This document shows positions 12,396 to 24,723 of a stretch of DNA of 64,000 nucleotides, piece by piece (position 1 is the first letter of the stretch; each line of letters starts with the position of its first letter). The stretch comes from Alphaproteobacteria bacterium (GTDB lineage Bacteria; Pseudomonadota; Alphaproteobacteria; MPNO01; UBA830), in assembly GCA_965243135.1 (NCBI GenBank), contig OZ251539.1, positions 1,216,001-1,280,000 of the forward strand, written 5' to 3'. The position numbers were made by a program, and so were the translations under genes. A model generated the notes under the pieces. The model did not search any database. It saw nothing but the letters and a program-made list of their open reading frames with translations, and was not told the DNA's origin.

Positions 12396-15107
12396 TTGTT
12401 GGCTGACAGCCCCGAGTTTCCGCCGCTTCCCGATATCGAACAGGTTTCCATCGAAGACGAGATGCGCAAGTCGTATCTCGACTACGCGATGAGCGTGATC
12501 GTGAGCCGGGCCCTCCCCGACGTCCGCGACGGACTCAAACCCGTGCATCGCCGCATCCTCCACGTCATGAACGAAGAGGGCTACGACTGGAACCGGGCGT
12601 ATCGCAAGTCGGCGCGCGTCGTCGGCGACGTGATGGGCAAGTACCATCCGCACGGCGACCAGGCGATATACGACGCCATGGTCCGCATGGCGCAGGATTT
12701 CTCCATGCGCCTGCCGTTGATCGACGGACAGGGAAACTTCGGGTCGATGGACGGCGATCCGCCCGCAGCCATGCGATACACCGAGGTTCGACTCCAGCGG
12801 GCGGCTCGCGAACTGTTGGACGACATCGACAAGGAAACGGTCGACTTCCAGCCGAACTACGACGAGACCTCGAAGGAGCCGGTGGTTCTTCCGGCGAAGT
12901 TTCCCAATCTCCTGGTGAACGGCGCCGGCGGCATCGCGGTCGGAATGGCGACCAACATCCCGCCGCACAATCTCGGCGAAGTGATCGACGCCTGCTGCGC
13001 GTTGATCGACAACCCCGACATCTCGTTGAACGAGCTGATCGGCATCGTTCCCGGTCCCGACTTTCCGACCGGCGGGAGCGTCATGGGCCGCCGGGGCATC
13101 ACGTCCGCCTACCATCACGGCCGCGGGTCGGTGGTGATGCGGGGACGCACCGGCGTCGAGGAAATACGCAACAACCGCGAAGCCATAATCGTTACCGAAA
13201 TTCCCTACCAGGTGAACAAGGCGCGCATGATCGAGCGCATCGCGGAACTGGTTCGCGAGAAGAAGATCGAAGGGATTTCGGATCTGCGCGACGAATCGGA
13301 CAGGGACGGCGTGCGGGTCGTGATCGAGCTGAAGCGCGGCGCGATCGCCGACATCGTGCTCAACCAGCTCTACCGGTACTCCTCGCTGCAGACGAGCTTC
13401 GGCATAAACATGCTCGCTCTCGACGAGGGCCGTCCCGGACTTCTCGATCTCAAGCGGATCCTCGAGGCCTTCATCGGCTTCCGCGAGGAGGTCATTCGCC
13501 GCCGCACCGAGTACGACCTCGGGAAGGCGCGCACTCGAGCCCACGTCCTCGTCGGCCTTGCGATCGCCGTCGCGAACATCGACGAAGTCATCGCCCTGAT
13601 CCGCCGCGCGAAGGATCCCAACGAGGCGCGCGCGGAACTCATGGAACGGGACTGGCCCGCGGCGGACGTCGCGCCGCTGATCGAGCTGATCGACGATCCG
13701 GGGCATCGCGTCGTCGACGGGCGTTACAAGCTGTCGGAGGCGCAAGCGCGCGCCATTCTGGAATTGCGGCTGCAACGGCTGACTGGCCTCGAACGGGAAA
13801 AGATCGCCGAAGAGCTGAACGATCTGGCGAAGGAGATAGAGCTTTATCTTTCGATTCTGCGCTCGCGAGAGAAGGTGCTCGCCATCGCGAGGGAGGAACT
13901 GCAGGCCGTGAAGGAGAAGTTCGCGACGCCGCGCCGCACGCTGATCGAGGATGCCGAGTTCGAGACCGATATCGAGGATCTGATTCAGCGCGAAGAAATG
14001 GTGGTTACGGTGAGCCACACCGGATACATCAAGCGCGTGCGCCTTTCCACGTACCGGGCGCAGCGGCGCGGCGGAAAAGGCCGGGCCGGCATGTCGACGC
14101 GCGACGAAGACTTCGTCACCAAGGTGTTCGTCTGCAGCACCCATACGCCGGTCCTGTTCTTTTCGTCGCGCGGAATGGTCTACCGGTTGAAGGTGTTTCG
14201 GCTGCCCGAGGGCGAGCCGCAATGGCGCGGCAAGGCGCTGGTGAACCTTCTGCCGCTCGACGCGGGCGAGGTCATAACGACCGTTTTGCCCCTGCCCGAA
14301 GACGAGGAAACCGGAGAAGACCAGTTCATCATGTTCGCGACGGAGAGCGGCAACGTGCGCCGGAACCGGATGTCCGATTTCACGAGCATCAGGGCGAGCG
14401 GCAAGATCGCGATGAAGCTGGATTCGGGCGACAAGCTGATCGGGGTCGACACCTGCGGCGCGGACGACGACATTCTGCTGGCGGCCAACAACGGCAAGTG
14501 CATTCGTTTTCCTGTCGCCGACACGCGGATATTCAGCAGCCGCAATTCCACCGGCGTGCGCGGGATCAGGCTCGGCGAAGACGACCGGGTGGTGTCGTTG
14601 ACGGTTCTGGACCATACCCGGCTGGACGTCGAAACCCGGGACGCGTATCTGCGCGCGGCCAGGGCGCGCCAGCGAAACGGCGCGGAGGAGCCGGAGGAAA
14701 CGGACGCCGCCGGCGAAGACATCGCGCAGGAGGAATTCCAGCGTCTCGCCGAGGCCGAGCAGTTCATTCTGACCGTGACGGAGAACGGCTTCGGCAAGCG
14801 GACTTCGGCCTACGAGTACCGAACGACCCACAGGGGCGGGCGGGGTCTCGTCAATATCGCTACGGAAGGACGCAACGGGGAGGTCGTCGCGTCCTTCCCG
14901 GTCGCTCCGATGGACCAGATCATGCTGGTGACGAACGGCGGCAAGATCATCCGAAGTCCAGTGGGCGATATCCGCATCGCCGGGCGGGCGACCCAGGGCG
15001 TGAACCTTTTCCGGACGGCGGACGGGGAAAAGGTCGTTTCGGCGGCGCACGTGGAGGAAGGCAACGGGGAAGATGGCAACGGGGAGCGGACGGAGGAGGC
15101 TTCCTGA
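12396..15107 (+). CDS. gyrA: DNA gyrase subunit A
   Basis: [30 protein letters not shown], GyrA-box QRRGGKG; start uncertain (TTG). Confidence 0.97.
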
Positions 15108-15381
15108 AGCGCGCCTTCGGACAGCGTTCCCGAGAATGTCCGGGAGGATTCGAACATCGTTTCCCCTCAACGGATCCGAGCGCCGAAAATACCGTAAAGC
15201 GGCACGGCGTTTCTTTCCATCGCATGGACAGCAACCGCTACGGATGACGAAAACGGGCGAGGCGACGCAGAAGGCGCTGGTCACCGACGGGTGCAGGTCC
15301 GATATCGCCAAACCGGAAAATCTAGAAAGTTTACCCGCCTGCGCCGCCCTGGAGGCTGACGTTACCGTGCATCGCCCGAGG

Positions 15382-15411
15382 TTGCCGGCCTTTTCGGCGC
15401 GCTGGTATAGT
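15382..15411 (+). promoter_or_regulatory. Putative sigma70 promoter upstream of defence island
   Basis: TTGCCG-N18-TATAGT with TGn extended -10. Confidence 0.35.
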
Positions 15412-15801
15412 GCTGCCGGATCATGAGGAAGGATGGCGCGATGAGGTCGGAGGATCCGAGAGTGCTCGACATCGGCGTTGGGGCGATGCTCGCCCAGGGC
15501 CGGAGGAGTCGCGCCGGATGCTCGCGCCCGTCACGAAATTCTCGGTCGGCTTCGGGACGGCCCGAAAGAAAAACGCGAGGTTGGCGCGCCACGGCAGTTG
15601 TTCGCCGCCGCGCTCGCCCGGCGAAACATGCGGAAGGGCCGCCCCCTCCAGAGACGTCCGGCGCCGCCTCGCGGTTGCGTCTTCGGAAGACCGCAGCGAA
15701 GCAGGCAGCCGACCGGACGCCGCCAGCGCAGCGGCCGGTCGACGCTGCGGCGTAAGGCGCCTCTTTCCTCGCGAACGACACGGTTTGCCCGCCGCAAAAG
15801 C

Positions 15802-18036
15802 ATGAACAAAGCGCAATTCTCCGTCGACGCCGCACTCGTCCGCGAACTGGGCGAACGCTTGGTAGGCCGGGACCATATCGCGCTGGCCGAACTGGCGAAG
15901 AACGCTTACGACGCCGATGCTGCCAATTGCAGCATCCGCATATTCGACGACTATATCGAGATTGCCGACGACGGCCATGGCATGTCGGAGGCGGTATTCT
16001 TGGATCATTGGATGCGTATCGGCACGACCCACAAGGCCGACCGGCAGTTTTCCGAAAAGTTTAGGCGACCCCTTGCGGGGTCCAAGGGAATCGGACGCTT
16101 GTCCGTCCAGTTTCTCGCAGAAGAGATGGAACTCTACAGCACGTCGCCGGAGCGTCCGAACTCGGCGCTCTATGCGATCGTCGACTGGCGCGGCATCGAA
16201 CAAGGGAAAGACCTCGCTACGTTCAATGTCGATTGGGACTTCATTTCCGACGTGCCGGACTATGCGGCCGGCAGCCTGACGGGAACCCTGATCCGTCTCA
16301 AGAACCTGAAGACGGAATGGACCGCAGAAACGCTTCGAAGCCTCGGCGGGGAAATCTGGACTCTCCGGTCGCCGTTCGGGCGTCGATCCCGCGCCGGCAG
16401 CGCAGAAGAATTCGTCATCGATCTGGACGCGCCGAAAATCGCCGGCGCACGGGAAGCGTTCGACGCAGCGCAGACAGCTCTTTTCGACAACTGGCGCGCC
16501 CGCATCAAGGGCAACCTTACGCGGGGCCGACGAGGCGAACCGGCGCTCGTCTCCCTCGAATTCAGGCCGGGCTATCCCGACGGTTCGAGCGATGCCGAGG
16601 ATTTTTCGGAGACCGTGCCGCTGCCCGTTCGCACCGGCCCCGATGCCCCGGAACCGTTCGTCGACGAAGCTTCCTTCGAGATTCTTGTCTTCAGGACCGA
16701 GGGTCGGCAAGCTGGCGGCCTCTCCGTCCGGAACGTAAGAGACTATCTTGCAAAGTTCGGCAATGTCTCCTTATACGATGCCGGCTTTCGACTTCCCTAC
16801 TACGGCGGCAGCAATGAAACGGGCGGGCAGGACTGGCTGGGCGTGGCGGTCGACCAGGCGCGGCGGCTGAACGTTTCGAAACTGTTGCCTGACCGCCTGC
16901 AAGCTTCCAGCCGCTACATGCAGGATCTGCCGGCGCCCGGGCGGATCTTCGGCGCTGTCCATGTGAACACTGGCCACGAAGCGGCAGCGGCGCGCGCCGA
17001 GGGCGCCCTCCGACTGCAGATTCAACCGGGCCGGGATCGGCTTCACAACAATGCCGCCTTCGTTCAGTTGCGCGACCTCGTCCGTTTCTCGCTCGACCTC
17101 TACGCATTCCGATACCGGCAACTCTCGCTCCGCGCGGCCGAAAGAGAGATGCCGAAGGAACCGCCGTCGCGCACGATCGACCGTTCGCTCGCCACTATCG
17201 AACGCAACAGGGACGACATCCCCACGACCGTCTACCGTGAAGTCCGCGAAGACGTCCTCGGCGCGAAGAAAGCGGCCGCTGCCGCGGAACGGACGTTCGA
17301 AGAACGTATCGCGGCACTGGCGCCATTGGCCACCGCAGGCATGACGGCGCTGGCGCTTAACCACGAACTTGCCCGCGAAACCCGCTTCATGCAGGCTGCC
17401 TCCGACCGTCTCCGCCAGATGGCGGAGGCCCGTTCGCTGCCTGAACTGAAAGATATGGCCGACCAGTTCGACGAGCTGCGCGGTCGACTCGCGTCGATCC
17501 AGGCTCTTTTCGCTCCGCTGCTTTCCGAAGCGGATTCAGCGCCGACCGAGCGTCTGCGGGCGCTTCCGGTGATCCAACAAATCGTCGGCTCCATGCGTCC
17601 CCTTCTGCCGGGTGTCGAAGTCGATTTCACAGGCGTGCTTGGCACACTGCGGTTTCCGGTCGGATCGTTCGCCGAATGGAGCGCGATCATTCAGAATGCT
17701 CTCGCAAACGCTTGGAATGCAACGTTGGACTCCTCGCGCCGAATTATTTCATTCGACAGCGGCCGTGATCGCAGCGGACGGGACCGGCTTTTGATCAGCG
17801 ACACGGGGGGCGGCTTGGCGATGCCGCTGTCGGCATCGGACGTTTTGTTCGAGCCGTTCGAGCGCCGCTTCGAGATTAGCGACGACAACCGTTCGATCGC
17901 TATCGGCGGGCAGGGACTCGGCTTGACGCTCATTCGCATGCTGTCCGCTCGCATCGGCGCGCGAGCCCGTTTCGTGAAACCGTTGGAAAATTTCTCGACA
18001 TCGTTGGAGATCTCGTGGATGGGGGTTAAGGAATGA
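15802..18036 (+). CDS. GHKL (MORC/HATPase_c_3-type) ATPase fused to C-terminal histidine kinase
   Basis: N-term ELAKNAYDADA, DDGHGM, GSKGIGRL; C-term H-box ALNHEL, N-box NALANA, SDTGGG, FEPFER, GGQGLGL. Confidence 0.88.
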   Translation: MNKAQFSVDAALVRELGERLVGRDHIALAELAKNAYDADAANCSIRIFDDYIEIADDGHGMSEAVFLDHWMRIGTTHKADRQFSEKFRRPLAGSKGIGRLSVQFLAEEMELYSTSPERPNSALYAIVDWRGIEQGKDLATFNVDWDFISDVPDYAAGSLTGTLIRLKNLKTEWTAETLRSLGGEIWTLRSPFGRRSRAGSAEEFVIDLDAPKIAGAREAFDAAQTALFDNWRARIKGNLTRGRRGEPALVSLEFRPGYPDGSSDAEDFSETVPLPVRTGPDAPEPFVDEASFEILVFRTEGRQAGGLSVRNVRDYLAKFGNVSLYDAGFRLPYYGGSNETGGQDWLGVAVDQARRLNVSKLLPDRLQASSRYMQDLPAPGRIFGAVHVNTGHEAAAARAEGALRLQIQPGRDRLHNNAAFVQLRDLVRFSLDLYAFRYRQLSLRAAEREMPKEPPSRTIDRSLATIERNRDDIPTTVYREVREDVLGAKKAAAAAERTFEERIAALAPLATAGMTALALNHELARETRFMQAASDRLRQMAEARSLPELKDMADQFDELRGRLASIQALFAPLLSEADSAPTERLRALPVIQQIVGSMRPLLPGVEVDFTGVLGTLRFPVGSFAEWSAIIQNALANAWNATLDSSRRIISFDSGRDRSGRDRLLISDTGGGLAMPLSASDVLFEPFERRFEISDDNRSIAIGGQGLGLTLIRMLSARIGARARFVKPLENFSTSLEISWMGVKE

Positions 18037-19319
18037 AAGTTCTTGTTTGCGACGACTTGTCGGAAGACAAGGATGATTTCGGTGAAGCGATTCGGGAAGC
18101 CGATCCCAATATAGAAGTAGAGCGCTTGCACGGCACCACGTTGCCGGAAGAGCTGGACCGTTTGTTTAAGAACGTTTCAAGCATTCTGAAAGCGCCTGAT
18201 CGGCCGTCGCCGCATCCGACGAAATTCGATGAAAGTTACGACCTTGTATTTCTCGACAACAATCTGGCTTATTTGAATATTGTCGGTGCGAGGCTGACGG
18301 GCGAGGCTGTCGCCGGGTACATCAGGGCGTTTTCGTCCTCCTGTTACGTCGTGTCGCTAAACAAAAATCCCGATGTGGACTTCGACTTGCGCTACTTGAT
18401 GGGCGATTACGAGACCCGGGCGGATTTGGCGTTGAACACCGATCATCTTTCCAATCGGGCGCTGTGGACGCACAGAAAGCAAGAAGCGACAGACGGTTTT
18501 CTGCCGTCGTATTGGCCCTGCCTGAACGAAATCGGGCGGAAACGCCGCCTCCAGATAGGTTTTGTTTTGGAAAACCTGAACCGGCCTGTTCTGGAGGTAT
18601 TCCAATTCGATGAAAATGCGGTAGAAATGCTGTCCAGACATGCGAAAGGGACGCTTTTCCAATCTCCGAGCGCGAACGCTTCCGCTGTCGAAGATTCCAA
18701 TTTTGACAAAGCGACGTTTATGGATTTATTTTCCGCCTCAAGGCGTTTCCTTCCTGTTCCGAAAGAAAGGGAATGCATAAGGGCGGCGGCCGAGAAGAAT
18801 TCTCAAAATGCGAAACGGATCGTCGCCCGCGTGGTTGCGGCGACAATCGATCACTGGTTCCGCCGCGATGTCCTCGGCCCACAGGAAGTTCTCGTGGACA
18901 TGGCTCATTTGCTGCCGCGCATGCCGTTTCTCTTGGGCACGGGAGCAAGCGACGTCGACCGCTGGAACGCCGCGCTCGAAGCCGATGATCCACTGTCCGC
19001 TCTGGATCGCGCCTTGGTCGAAAAGCACCTATGGGGGAGCCTTTTTCCTCATGATATTTGGATCCCATCTCCTTGTTTCTGGTGGAACAGGCTTCAAGAC
19101 AACGAAGAGCTGAACGAGTTTTTCTTTCAGGAAGACACGAACTGGGCTTCCGTTGTTTTTTGCGAGGATAAATCCGAATTCGTTCCACGACCCGACGACG
19201 ATCAATCGCCGCCGTTCGAATTTGCCGCCGAATACGAAAGCGGCGCATGGAACCGGCGTTTCGTAAATTCCATCGAAGGATTTAGATATGGTCCGAAAAG
19301 TCGCTTTGCTGCTCCGTGA
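18033..19319 (+). CDS. Receiver (REC)-domain protein with large unknown C-terminal region
   Basis: MKVLVCDD...YDLVFLDNNL...GEAVAGYIR; ATGA overlap with kinase stop. Confidence 0.75.
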   Translation: MKVLVCDDLSEDKDDFGEAIREADPNIEVERLHGTTLPEELDRLFKNVSSILKAPDRPSPHPTKFDESYDLVFLDNNLAYLNIVGARLTGEAVAGYIRAFSSSCYVVSLNKNPDVDFDLRYLMGDYETRADLALNTDHLSNRALWTHRKQEATDGFLPSYWPCLNEIGRKRRLQIGFVLENLNRPVLEVFQFDENAVEMLSRHAKGTLFQSPSANASAVEDSNFDKATFMDLFSASRRFLPVPKERECIRAAAEKNSQNAKRIVARVVAATIDHWFRRDVLGPQEVLVDMAHLLPRMPFLLGTGASDVDRWNAALEADDPLSALDRALVEKHLWGSLFPHDIWIPSPCFWWNRLQDNEELNEFFFQEDTNWASVVFCEDKSEFVPRPDDDQSPPFEFAAEYESGAWNRRFVNSIEGFRYGPKSRFAAP

Positions 19320-19356
19320 TTTTTGTATTCGACGAAGCAATATTGGCCGCATTAAA

Positions 19357-19974
19357 ATGGATTACATGGAACTTATGCGCGGCTATGCGATCACCGGGGT
19401 GCGCGATTGGAAATCAAAAGCGCCCGAATCCATAAGGAAAAACGCTTTGGAGTGCTTAGCGCACAGGTATCTGGCGGAGGAGGAACAATATATTGACAAC
19501 ATCTTGCGGCAAGAGAAATCTAGCCCCTCGCCGAGATTCATTCCGATGCCGCGACCGGGTTTCAGAAGATCGACAAAAAAGCGTTTTCAATGGACGTTCT
19601 TTGCGCCCGTCGGATTGGATGATATAATGAGTTTTGAGTTGTTGATTTTGTACGAAAAAAGGCAATGTCTTGCGTTTCGTTTGGAACCAGGACATCCTGA
19701 AAGCAGATCGCATAATTATACGCATATTCAATTCAACCAAGATTTGTACAAAAAGAGAATTCAAGTCGCAGGAATCCCGCCTTTCATTTCTGACAGCTTT
19801 CCAGCCTTTCCGTTGCCGGGTTCGGATGCCATCTCGTTGTTTTTTGCTATGATTGTTGCCGTTCACGGATACCAAGGAACCCTCAACATAATACAGCGTG
19901 TGTTTCAGGCGGGCAGTGGTTCAGAGAAAGTTAGTAAGTATTTGATACATTTAAGAAATCTGTTAAGAGTCTAA
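19357..19974 (+). CDS. Hypothetical protein (low GC, HxxxH motif)
   Basis: FRLEPGHPESRSHNYTHIQF...SFPAFPLP; true start may be GTG 19316 (GTGA overlap) with a 1-nt slip in AAAA at about 19355. Confidence 0.65.
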   Translation: MDYMELMRGYAITGVRDWKSKAPESIRKNALECLAHRYLAEEEQYIDNILRQEKSSPSPRFIPMPRPGFRRSTKKRFQWTFFAPVGLDDIMSFELLILYEKRQCLAFRLEPGHPESRSHNYTHIQFNQDLYKKRIQVAGIPPFISDSFPAFPLPGSDAISLFFAMIVAVHGYQGTLNIIQRVFQAGSGSEKVSKYLIHLRNLLRV

Positions 19975-21402
19975 TGGAACGGTAGCTAAAAATCGTCGGT
20001 AGCAGCGTATGTATCCGCCCTTGATCTTTGGCGCTATGCCTACCAACGCCCGTTCCAGCCCTCCGTCCTTCAACCTCCCGTACAACTCGTCGACGTCATC
20101 GTCCGGTGCGAAGATTGCATAGACGCCGTGCGAAGGGATCGCCCCCGACCTGTCCACCGCAAGCCGGGGAACCTTGGCGAGTTCCGGAAGAACGAGCTTC
20201 GGCCGTGCCCAGTCGACAGCGAGCGTTCGGTCGATCGTCCGGTACCAGGCCGCTCCGTTTCTGACGATCGAGCGATTTTCGAGTTTGGTTTTGAAGCGCT
20301 CCAGGCGAGCGGCCAGCAATGGAAAACGGTCGAGGTCTATCAGCCTTCCGTCGTCGTCGTGCATGGCGACGACGCGGCGTCCGCGCCACGTCACACGCCC
20401 CTCCGAGATTTCCGAGCCGTCGATCCACGGGCGAAGAAGTTCCTGTTCGACGTCGTTCTCCTCGGGTCGGAGGACGAACGCGGGCGTATGGCCCAGCGCC
20501 GGTCCGACCCGAATCAGGCAGTTCGCGTCCGCCAGCGTCCGGCGCCTCGCGCCCGCAGAGGCCTTTCGCTTTTCCGCTCTCTTGGATGCGACCAGAATCG
20601 ACGGATAGGCGTCCACGCCGGTTGCAAAGGCTTCCGCCGCGTCGATCGATCTCTCGGAGATTATCTTCAAACGCGGCGTCCATTTGTCGCGGAAGGCTTG
20701 ACCAAAGGCCATGAAACGCCAGCGGTCGGAACACAGAAATCCGCACCGCCCGCCGACCTCCAGAAAATCCAGCGCCATGTCGAGAAAGGGCAGGAAGAGA
20801 TCGCCGCCCGTCACTTTGCCGGGCAGACGCGCGGCATAGCGGGATTTGAGCGGTTCCGGGATCTTTGACCAACGAATGTAGGGCGGATTCCCGACTGCAT
20901 GCGTAAAATTCCAGTTCCCGGGTTCAGCCATGAGAAAATCTTCGTCGGCAATCCAGGCGTTGACGCAGGCGGTCGCCGTCCGGTGGTGCAAACCGGACTT
21001 CAGGAGCGTTTTCCAGACGCGCATTCGCGCTTCGCCCGCGGCGGCGGGGTGGATCTCGAAAGCGCTGATCCTATCGACGAGCTGCGCCGCCTTCGGATCG
21101 ATGTCTCGCCTCCTGAACGAAGCGATCAGGCGCTCTGCCGCAGCGACGAGGAACGCGCCGTTCCCCGCGGCCGGCTCCAAAAGGCGAGTTTCGGCGAGAT
21201 CGGCGCCGCTCGTCCACCCCACGGCGTCGAGAATCTCGTTCACGATTTCCGGTTTCGTGTAAACCCCGCATCGCGCATGGAGTTCCTGCACGGCGCGGTC
21301 GACGACCGGTTCCCTGCTTCTCTCCTTTCGCGGGCTCGTATCGTCCCCGGAGGCCGGAACGGCCGCCGTTCCCGGTGCCGCCAGGCTCCCGCCGTCGCCC
21401 AT
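19963..21402 (-). CDS. N6-adenine DNA methyltransferase (gamma class, TaqI/Eco57I-like)
   Basis: GVYTKPEIV, motif I LLEPAAGNGAF, motif IV VGNPPY, GDLFLPF; start uncertain. Confidence 0.88.
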   Translation of the reverse strand: MGDGGSLAAPGTAAVPASGDDTSPRKERSREPVVDRAVQELHARCGVYTKPEIVNEILDAVGWTSGADLAETRLLEPAAGNGAFLVAAAERLIASFRRRDIDPKAAQLVDRISAFEIHPAAAGEARMRVWKTLLKSGLHHRTATACVNAWIADEDFLMAEPGNWNFTHAVGNPPYIRWSKIPEPLKSRYAARLPGKVTGGDLFLPFLDMALDFLEVGGRCGFLCSDRWRFMAFGQAFRDKWTPRLKIISERSIDAAEAFATGVDAYPSILVASKRAEKRKASAGARRRTLADANCLIRVGPALGHTPAFVLRPEENDVEQELLRPWIDGSEISEGRVTWRGRRVVAMHDDDGRLIDLDRFPLLAARLERFKTKLENRSIVRNGAAWYRTIDRTLAVDWARPKLVLPELAKVPRLAVDRSGAIPSHGVYAIFAPDDDVDELYGRLKDGGLERALVGIAPKIKGGYIRCYRRFLATVPLDS

Positions 21403-21439
21403 GCGCCGGGGCGCGGTTTGCGATATGATGCCGTTCGTA

Positions 21440-22588
21440 ATGATTGTCGCAGGCCTCTTTGCCGGAATAGGAGGTTTCGAACACGCCTTCGCCCAAGCGG
21501 GGTTCGAAACCCGTTTGCTCGCCGAGATCGATCACGCGGCGCGGGCGATCCTAGAGGAACGCTTTCCGGGGATCCAGATCGGAAAGGACGTGGCACGCTT
21601 GACGGAGCTCCCGCACGGCACGGAGATCGTAACCGCCGGATTTCCTTGCCAGAACCTGAGCATGGCGGGCGACAAGTCCGGCATCGACGGCGACAAGTCT
21701 TCCGCCGTGAAAGCGATTTTTCCGCTGATAGAGCGGGCGAACGTCGGCACCGTCGTTATAGAGAACGTTTACTTCATGCTGCAGCTCAAATCCGGCGATG
21801 CCATGCGCTGGCTGGTCGAGCAGTTCGAGAAGCTGGAGTTCAAGTGGGCGTACCGCGTCCTGGATACCATGGGCTTCGGACTACCGCAGCGCCGCCGTCG
21901 CGTGTACATGGTGGCCAGTCGGGAGATCGACCCCCGGAGCGTGCTATTTGCGGATGACGCTCACGCCTCCGTGGCCGAGAATTACGATCTGAGAAAGCCC
22001 TTGGGATTCTATTGGACCGAAGGGCGATCCGGCGTCGGCTTCGTGTCGGACGCCATCCCGCCGATCAAGGCCGGCTCGTCGTTGGGAATTCCGTCGCCGC
22101 CCGCCGCGCTTTTTCCTGACGGCGAGGTCCTGATGCCCGACATCGCCGCTTGCGAACGCCTCCAGGGATTTCCGGAAGGATGGACCTTTCCCGCCGAAGA
22201 CAGGGGTACGAGAGGCGTCCGTTGGCGCTTGATCGGCAACGCTGTTTCCGTACCGGTCGCGCAATGGATCGCCGGGCGCCTCAGAGAACCCGGAACGCCT
22301 CGGGAGTTCGACGTCTTCGAACTCGGCGACGGCGACCGCTGGCCGGCTTCCGGCTGGAACGTCGGAGACGGTCGGATCGGCGCAATCGCCTCGGACAAGC
22401 CGTTCGACGCCCGCCCGCCGTCGATCGCGACATTCCGGGATGCGTCCTGGTCGAGGTTGTCCGACCGTGCATTGAACGGCTTTATCGGACGCGCCGTCGA
22501 GGGAGGCCTGAGAATGCCGCCGGGTTTTCTCGAAGCTCTTCGCTCGGCGGATCGCAGACCCCCAAGCCGCCAAAGGACGCGCAGGTAA
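21440..22588 (+). CDS. dcm: DNA (cytosine-5)-methyltransferase
   Basis: LFAGIGG, GFPCQ, ENV, PQRRRRVY, ERLQGFP, IGNAV. Confidence 0.93.
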   Translation: MIVAGLFAGIGGFEHAFAQAGFETRLLAEIDHAARAILEERFPGIQIGKDVARLTELPHGTEIVTAGFPCQNLSMAGDKSGIDGDKSSAVKAIFPLIERANVGTVVIENVYFMLQLKSGDAMRWLVEQFEKLEFKWAYRVLDTMGFGLPQRRRRVYMVASREIDPRSVLFADDAHASVAENYDLRKPLGFYWTEGRSGVGFVSDAIPPIKAGSSLGIPSPPAALFPDGEVLMPDIAACERLQGFPEGWTFPAEDRGTRGVRWRLIGNAVSVPVAQWIAGRLREPGTPREFDVFELGDGDRWPASGWNVGDGRIGAIASDKPFDARPPSIATFRDASWSRLSDRALNGFIGRAVEGGLRMPPGFLEALRSADRRPPSRQRTRR

Positions 22589-22660
22589 CCGGCATCGCGA
22601 GCCCGAACCGCTGCCGCGCAATCATGTCGAAGGTTTGGCGGAAGGATACGAAGCTGACAT
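22585..22660 (+). pseudogene. Very-short-patch repair endonuclease (vsr) N-terminal relic
   Basis: VTGIASPNRCRAIMSKVWRKDTKL resembles the Vsr N-terminus (MxDIVSPEKRSxxMSRIRxKDTKPE) and starts on the dcm stop. Confidence 0.55.
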
Positions 22661-22679
22661 GCGACGCCCTTCGACGAGC

Positions 22680-22810
22680 TACCGCTGCTGTCTGCAAAAG
22701 CTCCCCGGCGCGCGATACTTCGTCCGGGTCGCCGACGGCGAACCCCTCGCCGTCCTCGACTTCGGCGCCGCAACCTGGAAGATCGCGCATCAGGACAAGA
22801 TCGTCGGAAC
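22680..22810 (+). pseudogene. DUF4338 fragment (likely IS relic)
   Basis: QKLPGARYFVRVADGEPLAVLDFGAATWKIAHQDKIVG resembles DUF4338 GAQxRY...LGFGAAAWKxAPRDxFIGW. Confidence 0.5.
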
Positions 22811-23333
22811 CGCCGCCTTGCCGCCGACGGTCACCGAGGCCTGCCTTGGGTTCGGAACCTCGCGTCCCTCGCTCTGGTGACGACCGCCCGATGACGGGAA
22901 GCGCCGCTACGCATCGGTTCTTCTCAAGACGTTCTGCAAGACTCCGCGCTTCGAAGGAACCCACGCCGCCAGCAAGGCAGGGCCGCGAAGCGCCCGGGAC
23001 GCACCGTTCAACTGGCTGAAGCCCCTGCGCCGGGATCGGAGGCGGATCCTCAACAACGTCACCCCACAACCGAACGCTTACTGAAGCACAGGCCGCGCTT
23101 GTACCTGCGAAAAACTTGAGCTTGCGTTCGAAATCCTTCAACGCCGATCTTGTCGTCGGCGCGGGGACGACGAGATTATCGTTGACGCTGCCACGCAGGA
23201 CGGCGTCGTTGGCGGGACGCGCCATCGTTGCCTGCAATCTTGGAGAGAGGTTTGCACGCCTGCAAAAGAGGCTTGAAATCCGGGTCGCACCGGATTACTG
23301 TACGCCGCGATGGCCTGTCCTTGGCGGGTTTTG

Positions 23334-23346
23334 TAATAATTTGATT
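23334..23346 (-). promoter_or_regulatory. IHF-consensus site upstream of coaD
   Basis: Reverse complement AATCAAATTATTA fits WATCAANNNNTTR. Confidence 0.35.
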
Positions 23347-23428
23347 TAATTGCAAAATTCTGCGATTCAACCAAGCGAGATGCGCGGGTTGGGCTCTCCC
23401 GGACGGCGACACTGGCATGGAAGGCACG

Positions 23429-23956
23429 ATGGCTGGCAAACGGGTGGGAATTTATCCAGGCACTTTCGATCCGGTCACTTACGGGCATATCGACATAATC
23501 GGCCGGGCCGCGAAGCTGCTGGACAGAGTTGTGGTCGCCGTGGCCATCAATACGGGCAAGGCCCCGATATTCGGAATCGAGGAACGGATGGAGGTCGCTC
23601 GCGAAGAGATCTCCCATCTGCCGGACGACGTCGCGCAGCGGATCGAAGTGATGCAGGTGGAAGGTTTGCTCATCGAGTTCGCGCACAAGGTGGGAGCCAA
23701 CATAATCATTCGCGGCTTGCGGGCCGTTTCGGACTTCGACTACGAGTTCCAGATGGCGAGCATGAACGCGAAGATGGCGCCCGACGTGGAAACGGTCTGC
23801 CTCATGGCTTCGGACAAATTCCAGTTCATAGCGTCGAGCCTGGTCAAGGAGATCGCCAAGCTGAACGGCGACGTGAGCCCGTTCGTGTCGCCGCGAATCG
23901 CCGACCGGCTGGCGAAACGTTTCCATGACCAGCAGAACGCCGCGCAGCGCGGTTGA
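23429..23956 (+). CDS. coaD: Phosphopantetheine adenylyltransferase
   Basis: IYPGTFDPVTYGHIDII, IRGLRAVSDFDYEFQMA, SSLVKEIA. Confidence 0.97.
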   Translation: MAGKRVGIYPGTFDPVTYGHIDIIGRAAKLLDRVVVAVAINTGKAPIFGIEERMEVAREEISHLPDDVAQRIEVMQVEGLLIEFAHKVGANIIIRGLRAVSDFDYEFQMASMNAKMAPDVETVCLMASDKFQFIASSLVKEIAKLNGDVSPFVSPRIADRLAKRFHDQQNAAQRG

Positions 23957-23991
23957 CCGTCGCGCGTCACCTTCCTATTTTCCGCCCGGTG

Positions 23992-24067
23992 GCGCCCATA
24001 GCTCAGGTGGTAGAGCAACTGACTTTTAATCAGTGGGTCCCAGGTTCGAGTCCTGGTGGGCGCACCA
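23992..24067 (+). tRNA. tRNA-Lys (anticodon TTT)
   Basis: Acceptor stem GCGCCCA/TGGGCGC, anticodon arm ACTGA-CTTTTAA-TCAGT, GGTTCGAGTCC T-arm, encoded CCA; 76 nt. Confidence 0.97.
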
Positions 24068-24150: not shown

Positions 24151-24723
24151 ATGCAGCGCAAAGGCAATCTCCGTTACGTCTTTGGTTTCGCCGCCGCCGC
24201 CGTTTTTTCCCCTTCCGCGAACGCCGAACAGGTATTCGTCAAAGCCGCGGCGCCGCTGGACGAACCGAGAGGTCTCTGTCTCGACATTCCCGGACATCGC
24301 AGTCGCGTAAACGTCGACGCTCCCCTTGTCGTCCATACATGCAAGTGGGGGCTTTGGAATTTCGACGAACGGTTCGACGGCGACGCGCTGGCGAAAGGCG
24401 AACTGCGCATGCCCGAATACGGGTTGTGCGCCGGCGTCCGCGCGCCTGTCGAGGGAACGGAGATCCAGCTGGCCGACTGCGACGGAACGGCGCTCCGGCG
24501 CTGGACGTTCGCGGACAAGCGGCTGCGCCTTGCCGCCGCGCCGGACATGTGCCTCACGGTCGGGCCCGAGCCGTCGCAACTGACGCCGGGCGGGCGGCGG
24601 CTGCCTTCCCGGCACGTCGCCAGATCGCTCGCGCTCGAAGCGTGCAGTGATTCGGCGAAAACGCGGCAAACCTGGGAAACCGTCGCGCCGGACAGGGAAG
24701 GCGGGACGAGAAGGAGCGAGTGA
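24151..24723 (+). CDS. Secreted ricin-type beta-trefoil lectin-like protein
   Basis: Signal peptide (..SANA|EQ), LDEPRGLCLDIPG, repeated Cys motifs (HTCK, LADCD, MCLTV, EACSD) with Trp. Confidence 0.7.
   Translation: MQRKGNLRYVFGFAAAAVFSPSANAEQVFVKAAAPLDEPRGLCLDIPGHRSRVNVDAPLVVHTCKWGLWNFDERFDGDALAKGELRMPEYGLCAGVRAPVEGTEIQLADCDGTALRRWTFADKRLRLAAAPDMCLTVGPEPSQLTPGGRRLPSRHVARSLALEACSDSAKTRQTWETVAPDREGGTRRSE

Follow-up and report, generated by a model that had tools for sequence, protein, structure and literature searches.

Introduction

GHKL ATPases of the MORC and paraMORC type have been described in restriction-modification (R-M) systems (Iyer et al. 2008; PMC2292703), and a GHKL-nuclease Shedu protein of the paraMORC3 type, VcSduA, has been shown experimentally to be an anti-phage protein (PMC12137116). 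A later computational study (Bellieny-Rabelo et al. 2021; PMC8011034) describes histidine kinases (HKs) with the domains HATPase_c_3, HEF_HK and HATPase_c, derived from paraMORC proteins, that lie beside receiver-like proteins (RRs) with a Response_reg_2 domain. Such pairs were predicted to be linked to C5 methylases, Vsr and type II R-M genes, with the layout DNA_methylase, HK, RR and in some cases Vsr, and the Discussion of that paper puts forward that R-M systems are under the control of a signalling cascade. Here we analyse a cassette of five genes that lies between gyrA and coaD in an Alphaproteobacteria bacterium (GTDB lineage Bacteria; Pseudomonadota; Alphaproteobacteria; MPNO01; UBA830) and that combines a double-GHKL kinase and a receiver-like partner with two DNA methylases. 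The window, that is, the whole stretch of DNA analysed, comprises 64,000 nucleotides (positions 1,216,001 to 1,280,000 of contig OZ251539.1, assembly GCA_965243135.1), and all coordinates without a locus name refer to it.

The 2021 study had thus already predicted that MORC-type GHKL kinases and receiver-like proteins are linked to C5 methylases and Vsr. An earlier note on this DNA, which had proposed a methylation-sensing phosphorelay for defence, was right that kinase/receiver modules are known beside R-M genes, and this lessens the newness of the idea. The composition of the cassette, its conservation as a unit and its relation to the described systems are set out below.

Results

Five genes form one conserved unit

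The cassette consists of genes for a GHKL histidine kinase (GHKL-HK, 744 aa; 15802-18036, + strand), a 428-aa protein whose N-terminus is predicted to have a receiver fold (REC428; 18033-19319, +), a small protein (ORF228, 205 aa from its likely start; 19357-19974, +), a gamma-class N6-adenine DNA methylase (m6A methylase; 19963-21402, -) and a C5-cytosine DNA methylase of the Dcm type (m5C methylase; 21440-22588, +). The stop of GHKL-HK and the start of REC428 share an ATGA at 18033-18036. The ORF228 and m6A genes converge, with their 3' ends overlapping by 12 nt (19963-19974), and the two methylase genes diverge from ATG 21402 and ATG 21440 across an intergenic region of 37 nt (21403-21439). 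The genes, the ATGA-coupled operon, its convergence on the NPPY methylase and the divergent dcm start about 37 bp away are therefore all where the earlier note had put them.

A one-genome-per-species scan with the REC428 alignment gave 23 related loci, all in metagenome-assembled genomes (MAGs), from Alpha- and Gammaproteobacteria, Acidobacteriota and Gemmatimonadota, and co-occurrence was tested by tblastn of the five window proteins on these loci. HK was found in 22 of the 23, as were ORF228, the m6A methylase and dcm, with the misses at contig ends (L015 and L018, whose contigs end inside the cassette), and all five genes were present in 21 of the 21 loci with full contig coverage. The order and orientation of the window recur in 20 of these 21, and the overlap between HK stop and REC start is seen in most loci. 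The divergent methylase pair is flipped as a block in L023, and an IS66 element lies between ORF228 and the m6A gene in L010. The five genes form one conserved unit, and the neighbourhood conservation on which the earlier note had staked its proposal was found. The cassette family is not small, with at least 799 kinase relatives and, for the REC428 profile, 639 clusters at 50% identity, and almost all members come from uncultured bacteria.

Pairwise distance matrices over 18 cassettes were compared with 999 permutations. The matrices of HK, REC and the m6A methylase correlated with r between 0.79 and 0.85 (0.85 for both HK-REC and HK-m6A), and that of ORF228 correlated with these three at 0.64-0.78 (REC-ORF228, 0.78), values that none of the 999 permutations reached; the correlations of dcm were weaker (r 0.17-0.47). 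Because shared ancestry alone could produce such correlations, they show inheritance as a unit only.

The same five genes, in another order, are also present on the actinobacterial plasmid pJCM18538, from Mycolicibacterium arabiense (L024, 134-8936), where HK and REC are 34% and 25% identical to the window proteins and ORF228 is matched by hhalign with a probability of 92% through its RFE, HxxxHxQ, PAxPLP and AVHG motifs. Two small unannotated genes precede the kinase on this plasmid, and its Dcm protein, of 554 aa, has a weak Vsr-like stretch at the C-terminus (E 0.0043). A Paraburkholderia plasmid (L026, 4337-10709) carries a helix-turn-helix gene, an Eco57I-type methylase, a kinase and proteins of 355 aa and 225 aa, with no dcm; although the 225-aa protein has an HxxxHxQ-like string, it is not significantly similar to ORF228.

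A soluble kinase with two GHKL modules

The GHKL-HK open reading frame (ORF) opens at TTG 15478, and we place the start at ATG 15802 because the homologues in 20 loci begin at the same methionine. The protein has an N-terminal GHKL module of the MutL/MORC type (Pfam HATPase_c_3, PF13589, residues 26-120), a conserved middle region of about 320 aa and a C-terminal kinase core composed of DHp, with H521, and CA (HATPase_c, PF02518, residues 629-724). Searched as a profile against the PDB, positions 21-81 match MutL, PMS2 and MORC3, positions 510-730 align with the DHp and CA domains of CpxA, EnvZ, HK853 and FixL, and the middle region gave nothing informative.

Both ATP sites are invariant in 20 aligned sequences: E30, N34, D37, D56xGxG60 and G93xxGxG98 at the N-terminus, and N632, N636, D667xGxG671, F683, F686 and G702GxGLG707 in the kinase core. 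The H box ALNH521E522 is likewise invariant, so that the canonical boxes of a histidine kinase (the H box with His and acidic residue, N, G1, F and G2) are all there. GHKL-HK, REC428 and ORF228 all lack a hydrophobic stretch of the length needed for a clear membrane span. The description of a cytoplasmic double-GHKL protein with intact boxes accordingly stands.

NF050001, the model for the BbrUII/HgiDII restriction enzymes, is matched by the first 180 aa with a score of 85.7 bits, where the cutoff is 550, and with an alignment limited to positions 2-179 of the 659 in the model. The N-terminus also matches the PADLOC models REase_II PDLC03419 and PDLC03485. Among the three non-methylase proteins, GHKL-HK alone has matches in PHROGs, to two families of unknown function.

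A receiver-like partner with a conserved C-terminal part

Conservation in REC428 was assessed on the query and 118 of the 150 profile hits listed, of 370-460 aa and 25-50% identity to the query. D7, D8 and D75 reach at least 95% conservation in these 119 sequences and provide the acidic pair after beta1 and the acceptor Asp after beta3 of a receiver. The AlphaFold2 model (predicted local distance difference test, pLDDT, 80.7; predicted template-modelling score, pTM, 0.86) was compared as a whole with the PDB by Foldseek, which returned receiver domains only, with E values of about 1e-2 and probabilities of 0.8-0.99. The reported 428-aa protein with receiver acidic residues is thus confirmed, with an N-terminus predicted to adopt the receiver fold. 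The catalytic residues of kinase and receiver are intact, and the pair would be expected to work by autophosphorylation of the kinase and transfer of the phosphate to REC428.

Five residues of the C-terminal part (D289, H292, E378, D379 and R409) are also conserved at 95% or more in the 119 sequences. Neither Foldseek of the whole model against the PDB nor a PDB profile search with the REC428 alignment, which had no match at E<=10, gave a relative of this domain among solved structures, and an Atlas search with the C-terminal part alone gave no usable match. No DNA-binding output domain was recognised by Pfam, Foldseek or the PDB profile search, and no model in PADLOC, Pfam, NCBIfam or PHROGs names REC428 or ORF228. 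A complex prediction for these two proteins scored 0.10, with the mark at 0.32, and speaks neither for nor against binding.

A fast-evolving small protein

The ORF of ORF228 opens at 19288, and comparison with relatives indicates 19357 as the likely start. It encodes a small soluble protein in which H119xYxH123xQ125 is invariant in 28 sequences, in agreement with the HxxxH ORF reported before, together with R108xE110 and H170-G171. The AlphaFold2 model is confident (pLDDT 90.7), and its fold had no match at E<=0.001 in the PDB (best Foldseek E 0.27) or in BFVD (best E 0.076). Ubiquitin E2 enzymes recurred in Foldseek at probabilities of 0.04-0.16 and were treated as noise. A PDB profile search gave three matches, all with E>1, and PHROGs gave none. 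ORF228 is the fastest-evolving gene of the cassette, with a median pairwise identity of 0.34 versus 0.56 for HK, and the most GC-poor.

Two methylases of different chemistry and a variable vsr

The m6A methylase matches Pfam Eco57I (PF07669) and PADLOC MTase_II PDLC03313 (5e-87) and contains the motifs EPAAGNGAF and GNPPY. It may start at ATG 21402 or at GTG 21291, and alignments with homologues begin at residues 15-38. Dcm matches Pfam PF00145 (9.5e-42), PADLOC MTase_II PDLC03324 over its full length (1.2e-111) and TIGR00675, with the motifs FAGIGG, PCQ and ENV; its ORF is open from 21401, with alignments to homologues starting at residue 13-14. Both enzymes thus carry the catalytic motifs expected of a type II R-M methylase. 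The 37 nt between the two genes presumably hold a shared promoter or regulatory region, and a simple scan of 21403-21439 found no promoter-like match.

As the earlier note had stated, no restriction enzyme is recognisable: no such model in Pfam, PADLOC or NCBIfam matches any cassette gene over its full length, and only the GHKL part of the kinase matches restriction-endonuclease models, far below cutoff. The note was also right that two methylation chemistries are paired in one module, with the motifs of both enzymes found, and went too far in calling this unusual, the pair not being exceptional in itself. Type IIS systems with asymmetric sites have one methylase per strand, sometimes of different chemistries, and by analogy with some of these systems the m6A and m5C enzymes may each act on one strand of an asymmetric site. 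The likeness lies in the two methylases; a type IIS endonuclease has no PADLOC match in the cassette.

The claim that a vsr relic follows dcm lacks statistical support. Searches of the window by tblastn with four Vsr proteins gave no match at E<=0.01, Pfam Vsr (PF03852) had none at E<=1 on the translated stretch, and the only resemblance, at motif level, covers about 30 residues of the Vsr N-terminus at 22567-22653 (+ strand), overlapping the 3' end of dcm (tblastn E 0.49 in a 1.9-kb target). Among the 23 related loci, the four Vsr proteins detected vsr in 16 and not in 7. It adjoins the cassette in 14 loci, being divergent just upstream of HK in 11 and co-directional upstream in 2, and an intact copy lies 37 nt after dcm in L009. 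In two more loci (L001 and L012) vsr lies near the cassette beside a second dcm, and it may therefore belong to another system. The position occupied by vsr in 13 of the 23 loci corresponds in the window to the gap at 15108-15801, which has no Vsr similarity.

Base composition, insertions and neighbours

From about 0.64 for the window, the GC content falls to 0.53 in REC428 and 0.447 in ORF228. In the related loci it is below that of the flanks for HK in 22 of 22, for REC in 21 of 21 and for ORF228 in 22 of 22, and the mean differences from the flanks are -0.060 (HK), -0.090 (REC), -0.115 (ORF228), -0.038 (m6A) and -0.030 (dcm).

Insertion sequence (IS) elements interrupt the REC428 gene in two of the 23 loci, both in gammaproteobacterial MAGs (L021, 9774-11488; L023, 9801-11439). 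The two elements differ in their transposases (DDE_Tnp_1 and DDE_Tnp_1_4) and in their sites, after residues 253 and 272, and both methylase genes are intact in these loci; indeed, the methylase genes are uninterrupted in 22 of 22 loci. An asymmetry of this kind would follow from an HK-REC half that does harm when methylation is missing. HK matches fall in two reading frames, indicating a frameshift, in L006 (8282-8303) and L013 (6959-6966).

Of the 152 flank ORFs, 135 were compared with Pfam after 17 that overlap the cassette had been dropped. The flanks differ between loci, and no nuclease is common to them; the neighbours are housekeeping or defence genes, including HsdR, EcoRII, XhoI, GmrSD, DarT-Macro, HicB and IS21. 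Because a dcm-vsr-EcoRII set, GmrSD, XhoI, DarT-Macro or type I HsdR adjoins it, the cassette sits in defence islands in several loci, not all. Defence-gene neighbours lie at 3411-6107 in L001, 4126-6141 and 14491-16184 in L012, 3697-4434 and 13739-15304 in L020, 15308-18792 in L023, and 3568-6392 in L002 and L021.

In the window, gyrA (12396-15107, +) and coaD (23417-23956, +), both identified by an NCBIfam scan, border the cassette, so that its location between these two genes agrees with the earlier description. The 694 bp between gyrA and the cassette (15108-15801) are gene-free, the longest ORF having no Pfam match. Direct or inverted repeats linking the two island borders were searched for, with chance-level matches only (up to 11 nt), no Rfam family was found in 14500-24000, and there is no tRNA at the cassette borders. 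The sole tRNA within 10 kb of the cassette, a tRNA-Lys (anticodon ttt) at 23992-24067, directly follows coaD, and no repeat ties it to the borders. No gene with a family match lies in the roughly 830 bp between dcm and coaD (22589-23416), where the longest ORFs (22150-23019, +; 23138-23926, -) were negative in both Pfam and NCBIfam. An ORF of 190 aa at 24151-24723, which overlaps further ORFs of similar length, has weak NCBIfam lectin-family matches (E 8.6e-4, far below cutoff).

Discussion

The closest described relatives of the cassette are the kinase/receiver pairs of the 2021 study (PMC8011034). In that paper, as in the window, the kinases are soluble and combine an N-terminal HATPase_c_3, an H box with His-Glu and a C-terminal HATPase_c, the gene next downstream encodes a partner that is receiver-like at its N-terminus and contains no further known domain, and there is linkage to Dcm-type methylases and often to Vsr; a paraMORC origin is proposed for both the published kinases and that of the window. 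The differences are equally clear. The two families that define the published pairs, HEF_HK (PF19191) and Response_reg_2 (PF19192), do not match the window proteins at E<=10. PF19192 was found in none of the 38 REC relatives scanned and in none of the 120 listed by precomputed domains, a result for which there is no PF19192 positive control, and PF19191 in none of the 120 HK relatives listed by precomputed domains; a weak match of 17.1 bits on the Paraburkholderia plasmid kinase (L026) indicates that PF19191 was present in the library searched. In addition, an Eco57I-type m6A methylase and ORF228 are obligatory in the cassette, whereas 'Eco57I' occurs 0 times in the neighbourhood table of the paper. 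Alignments of REC428 and ORF228, compared by hhalign with the partner proteins from two plasmid loci of the broader group (Paraburkholderia and Enterobacter), showed no similarity, a weak test because the targets were single sequences. Judged by these domain and gene contents, the window clade is outside the description given in that study.

The likeness to MORC and paraMORC systems in general, including BbrUII/HgiDII, lies in an N-terminal GHKL module with intact ATP motifs, in the linkage to a cytosine methylase and Vsr and in a sporadic, laterally mobile distribution. However, the paraMORC proteins described in the accessible part of PMC2292703 carry nuclease, TIR or unknown domains C-terminally on the same chain, where the cassette kinase has a histidine-kinase core. 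Similarly, the GHKL ATPase of VcSduA is thought to gate an effector nuclease, but VcSduA, according to the available part of its description, consists of one polypeptide that includes a DUF4263 PD-(D/E)xK nuclease and involves no methylases, kinase core or receiver, and no Shedu model in PADLOC matched the cassette. MADS, as far as its description is accessible, is a multigene defence system that also combines a methylase with ATPase and kinase-annotated genes, but it has eight genes and an OLD-type MAD3-MAD4 ATPase-nuclease. We rejected an assignment of the cassette to MADS, as only the m6A methylase matches mad2, weakly (1.2e-9), and no other mad model matches.

Detocs is a defensive two-component system in which His-Asp phosphotransfer switches on an immune effector; it has no methylases and uses a different sensor and effector, and no Detocs model of PADLOC matches the cassette. 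PADLOC-DB v2.0.0 has 0 families for REC428 and ORF228; for HK it gives REase_II alone, at the N-terminus, and for the methylases the generic MTase_II models. By PADLOC, Pfam and NCBIfam, then, the cassette is not a full match to any characterised system; the earlier note had suggested this check.

The region is a horizontally mobile cassette of strictly conserved gene content, and with somewhat more belief than doubt we regard it as self-contained and as following R-M logic. Reading the conserved residues and the gene linkage together, we lean, to the same degree, towards a restriction-type system gated by His-to-Asp transfer. The marking half would consist of the m6A methylase and Dcm, which would mark host DNA, and Vsr, where present in relatives, would repair the T:G mismatches that arise from deamination of m5C. 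The attack half would consist of three co-translated proteins, GHKL-HK, REC428 and ORF228. GHKL-HK would dimerise on DNA and clamp it by means of its MutL/MORC-like ATPase and the conserved middle region, and methylation by the two cassette enzymes would keep the clamp silent. On DNA lacking this methylation, the kinase core would autophosphorylate at His521 and hand the phosphate on to Asp75 of REC428, whose C-terminal domain would be released by this phosphorylation. The conserved D289, H292, E378, D379 and R409 suggest that this domain may be a metal-dependent enzyme, most likely a nuclease, and ORF228 might serve as co-effector or regulate the activation of REC428. Protection against phage, like the clamping or scanning of DNA, the discrimination of methylation, the phosphotransfer and the nature of the effector, is what we infer from these features. 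A more specific version is rather doubtful and is offered tentatively: a MORC-like clamp would read methylation of two chemistries, unmarked DNA would lead to phosphorylation of the receiver and hence to activation of an effector of unseen fold, and ORF228 would be a second component with a new fold.

Several observations weigh against a restriction system gated in this way. No nuclease or effector domain was found in GHKL-HK, REC428 or ORF228 by Pfam, PADLOC, NCBIfam, Foldseek, PDB profile search or PHROGs. The receiver is atypical: its S108 and K111 are kept in close relatives, but the canonical Thr/Ser and Lys are conserved at less than 95% in the wide family of 119 sequences. REC428 has no Pfam match at E<=10, Response_reg (PF00072) included, and the Atlas search with the whole protein gave, besides unnamed clusters, one cluster with Pfam PF22563, iREC (score 0.87), which we treat as a lead only; the name iREC presumably denotes an inactive receiver. 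HEF_HK, too, is absent from GHKL-HK at E<=10. That the two methylases act on the sites that HK would read is our supposition. The frame breaks of HK seen in L006 and L013 may reflect either true inactivation or errors of MAG assembly. Finally, in the literature searched we found no work following up the family of PMC8011034, and no defence experiments for that family or for the cassette.

Among the alternatives, we consider an abortive-infection or addiction module unlikely. It would use the same sensor and phosphorelay, but the output of REC428 and ORF228 would be a toxin, acting for example by depletion of nucleotides or cofactors or as an indiscriminate nuclease, with no selective cutting of the invader, and the methylases would be the antidote that silences the sensor. 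Since neither the REC428 C-terminus nor ORF228 has a known fold, a non-nuclease toxin fits as well as a nuclease; IS elements in REC428 with intact methylases are compatible with a harmful output of this kind, and several loci lie among toxin-antitoxin or defence genes such as DarT-Macro, HicB and GmrSD. On the other hand, no sequence feature separates such a module from selective restriction, and where a relative of the HK N-terminus has a name, it is a type II restriction enzyme.

It is also improbable, to a similar extent, that the cassette is a regulatory two-component system in which HK and REC sense an intracellular cue and control both methylases as an epigenetic switch, with no restriction activity. 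The lack of any restriction nuclease in the Pfam, PADLOC and NCBIfam searches and the 37-nt divergent control region shared by the methylase genes would suit such a switch, which the Discussion of PMC8011034 suggests for the related family. However, REC428 has no recognisable DNA-binding output domain, and the N-terminal GHKL module is of the type of MutL/MORC and restriction enzymes rather than a ligand sensor. Moreover, orphan methylases need no three-protein module that is GC-poor, mobile and conserved in 21 of 21 loci, and IS inactivation strikes REC, not the methylases. The weakest alternative, a repair accessory in which a MutL-like ATPase module aids very-short-patch repair of T:G mismatches at Dcm sites, is very improbable: MutL stimulates Vsr in E. 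coli, the N-terminal domain of HK aligns to MutL and PMS2 and vsr is a frequent neighbour (next to the cassette in 14 of the 23 loci, with 2 further loci in which it lies close by, beside a second dcm), but vsr was not found in 7 of the 23 loci or in the window while HK, REC and ORF228 are always present, and the kinase core, the receiver and the strictly linked m6A methylase would be left unexplained.

If the reading as a phosphotransfer-gated restriction system is true, restriction would here be controlled by phosphotransfer and not by direct coupling of recognition to cleavage, and the part of sensor would be played by a bacterial relative of the MORC ATPases, proteins that in eukaryotes act on methylated chromatin. 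The cassette would thus bring two-component signalling, MORC ATPases and epigenetic self-marking together in one machine. Because their confident predicted structures have no known relatives, two of its proteins may hide new enzymatic folds. As the related system described in 2021 has prediction only, a result on the cassette would bear on a wider group of loci, and the mechanism proposed here would be the first for the larger related HEF_HK/Response_reg_2 group.

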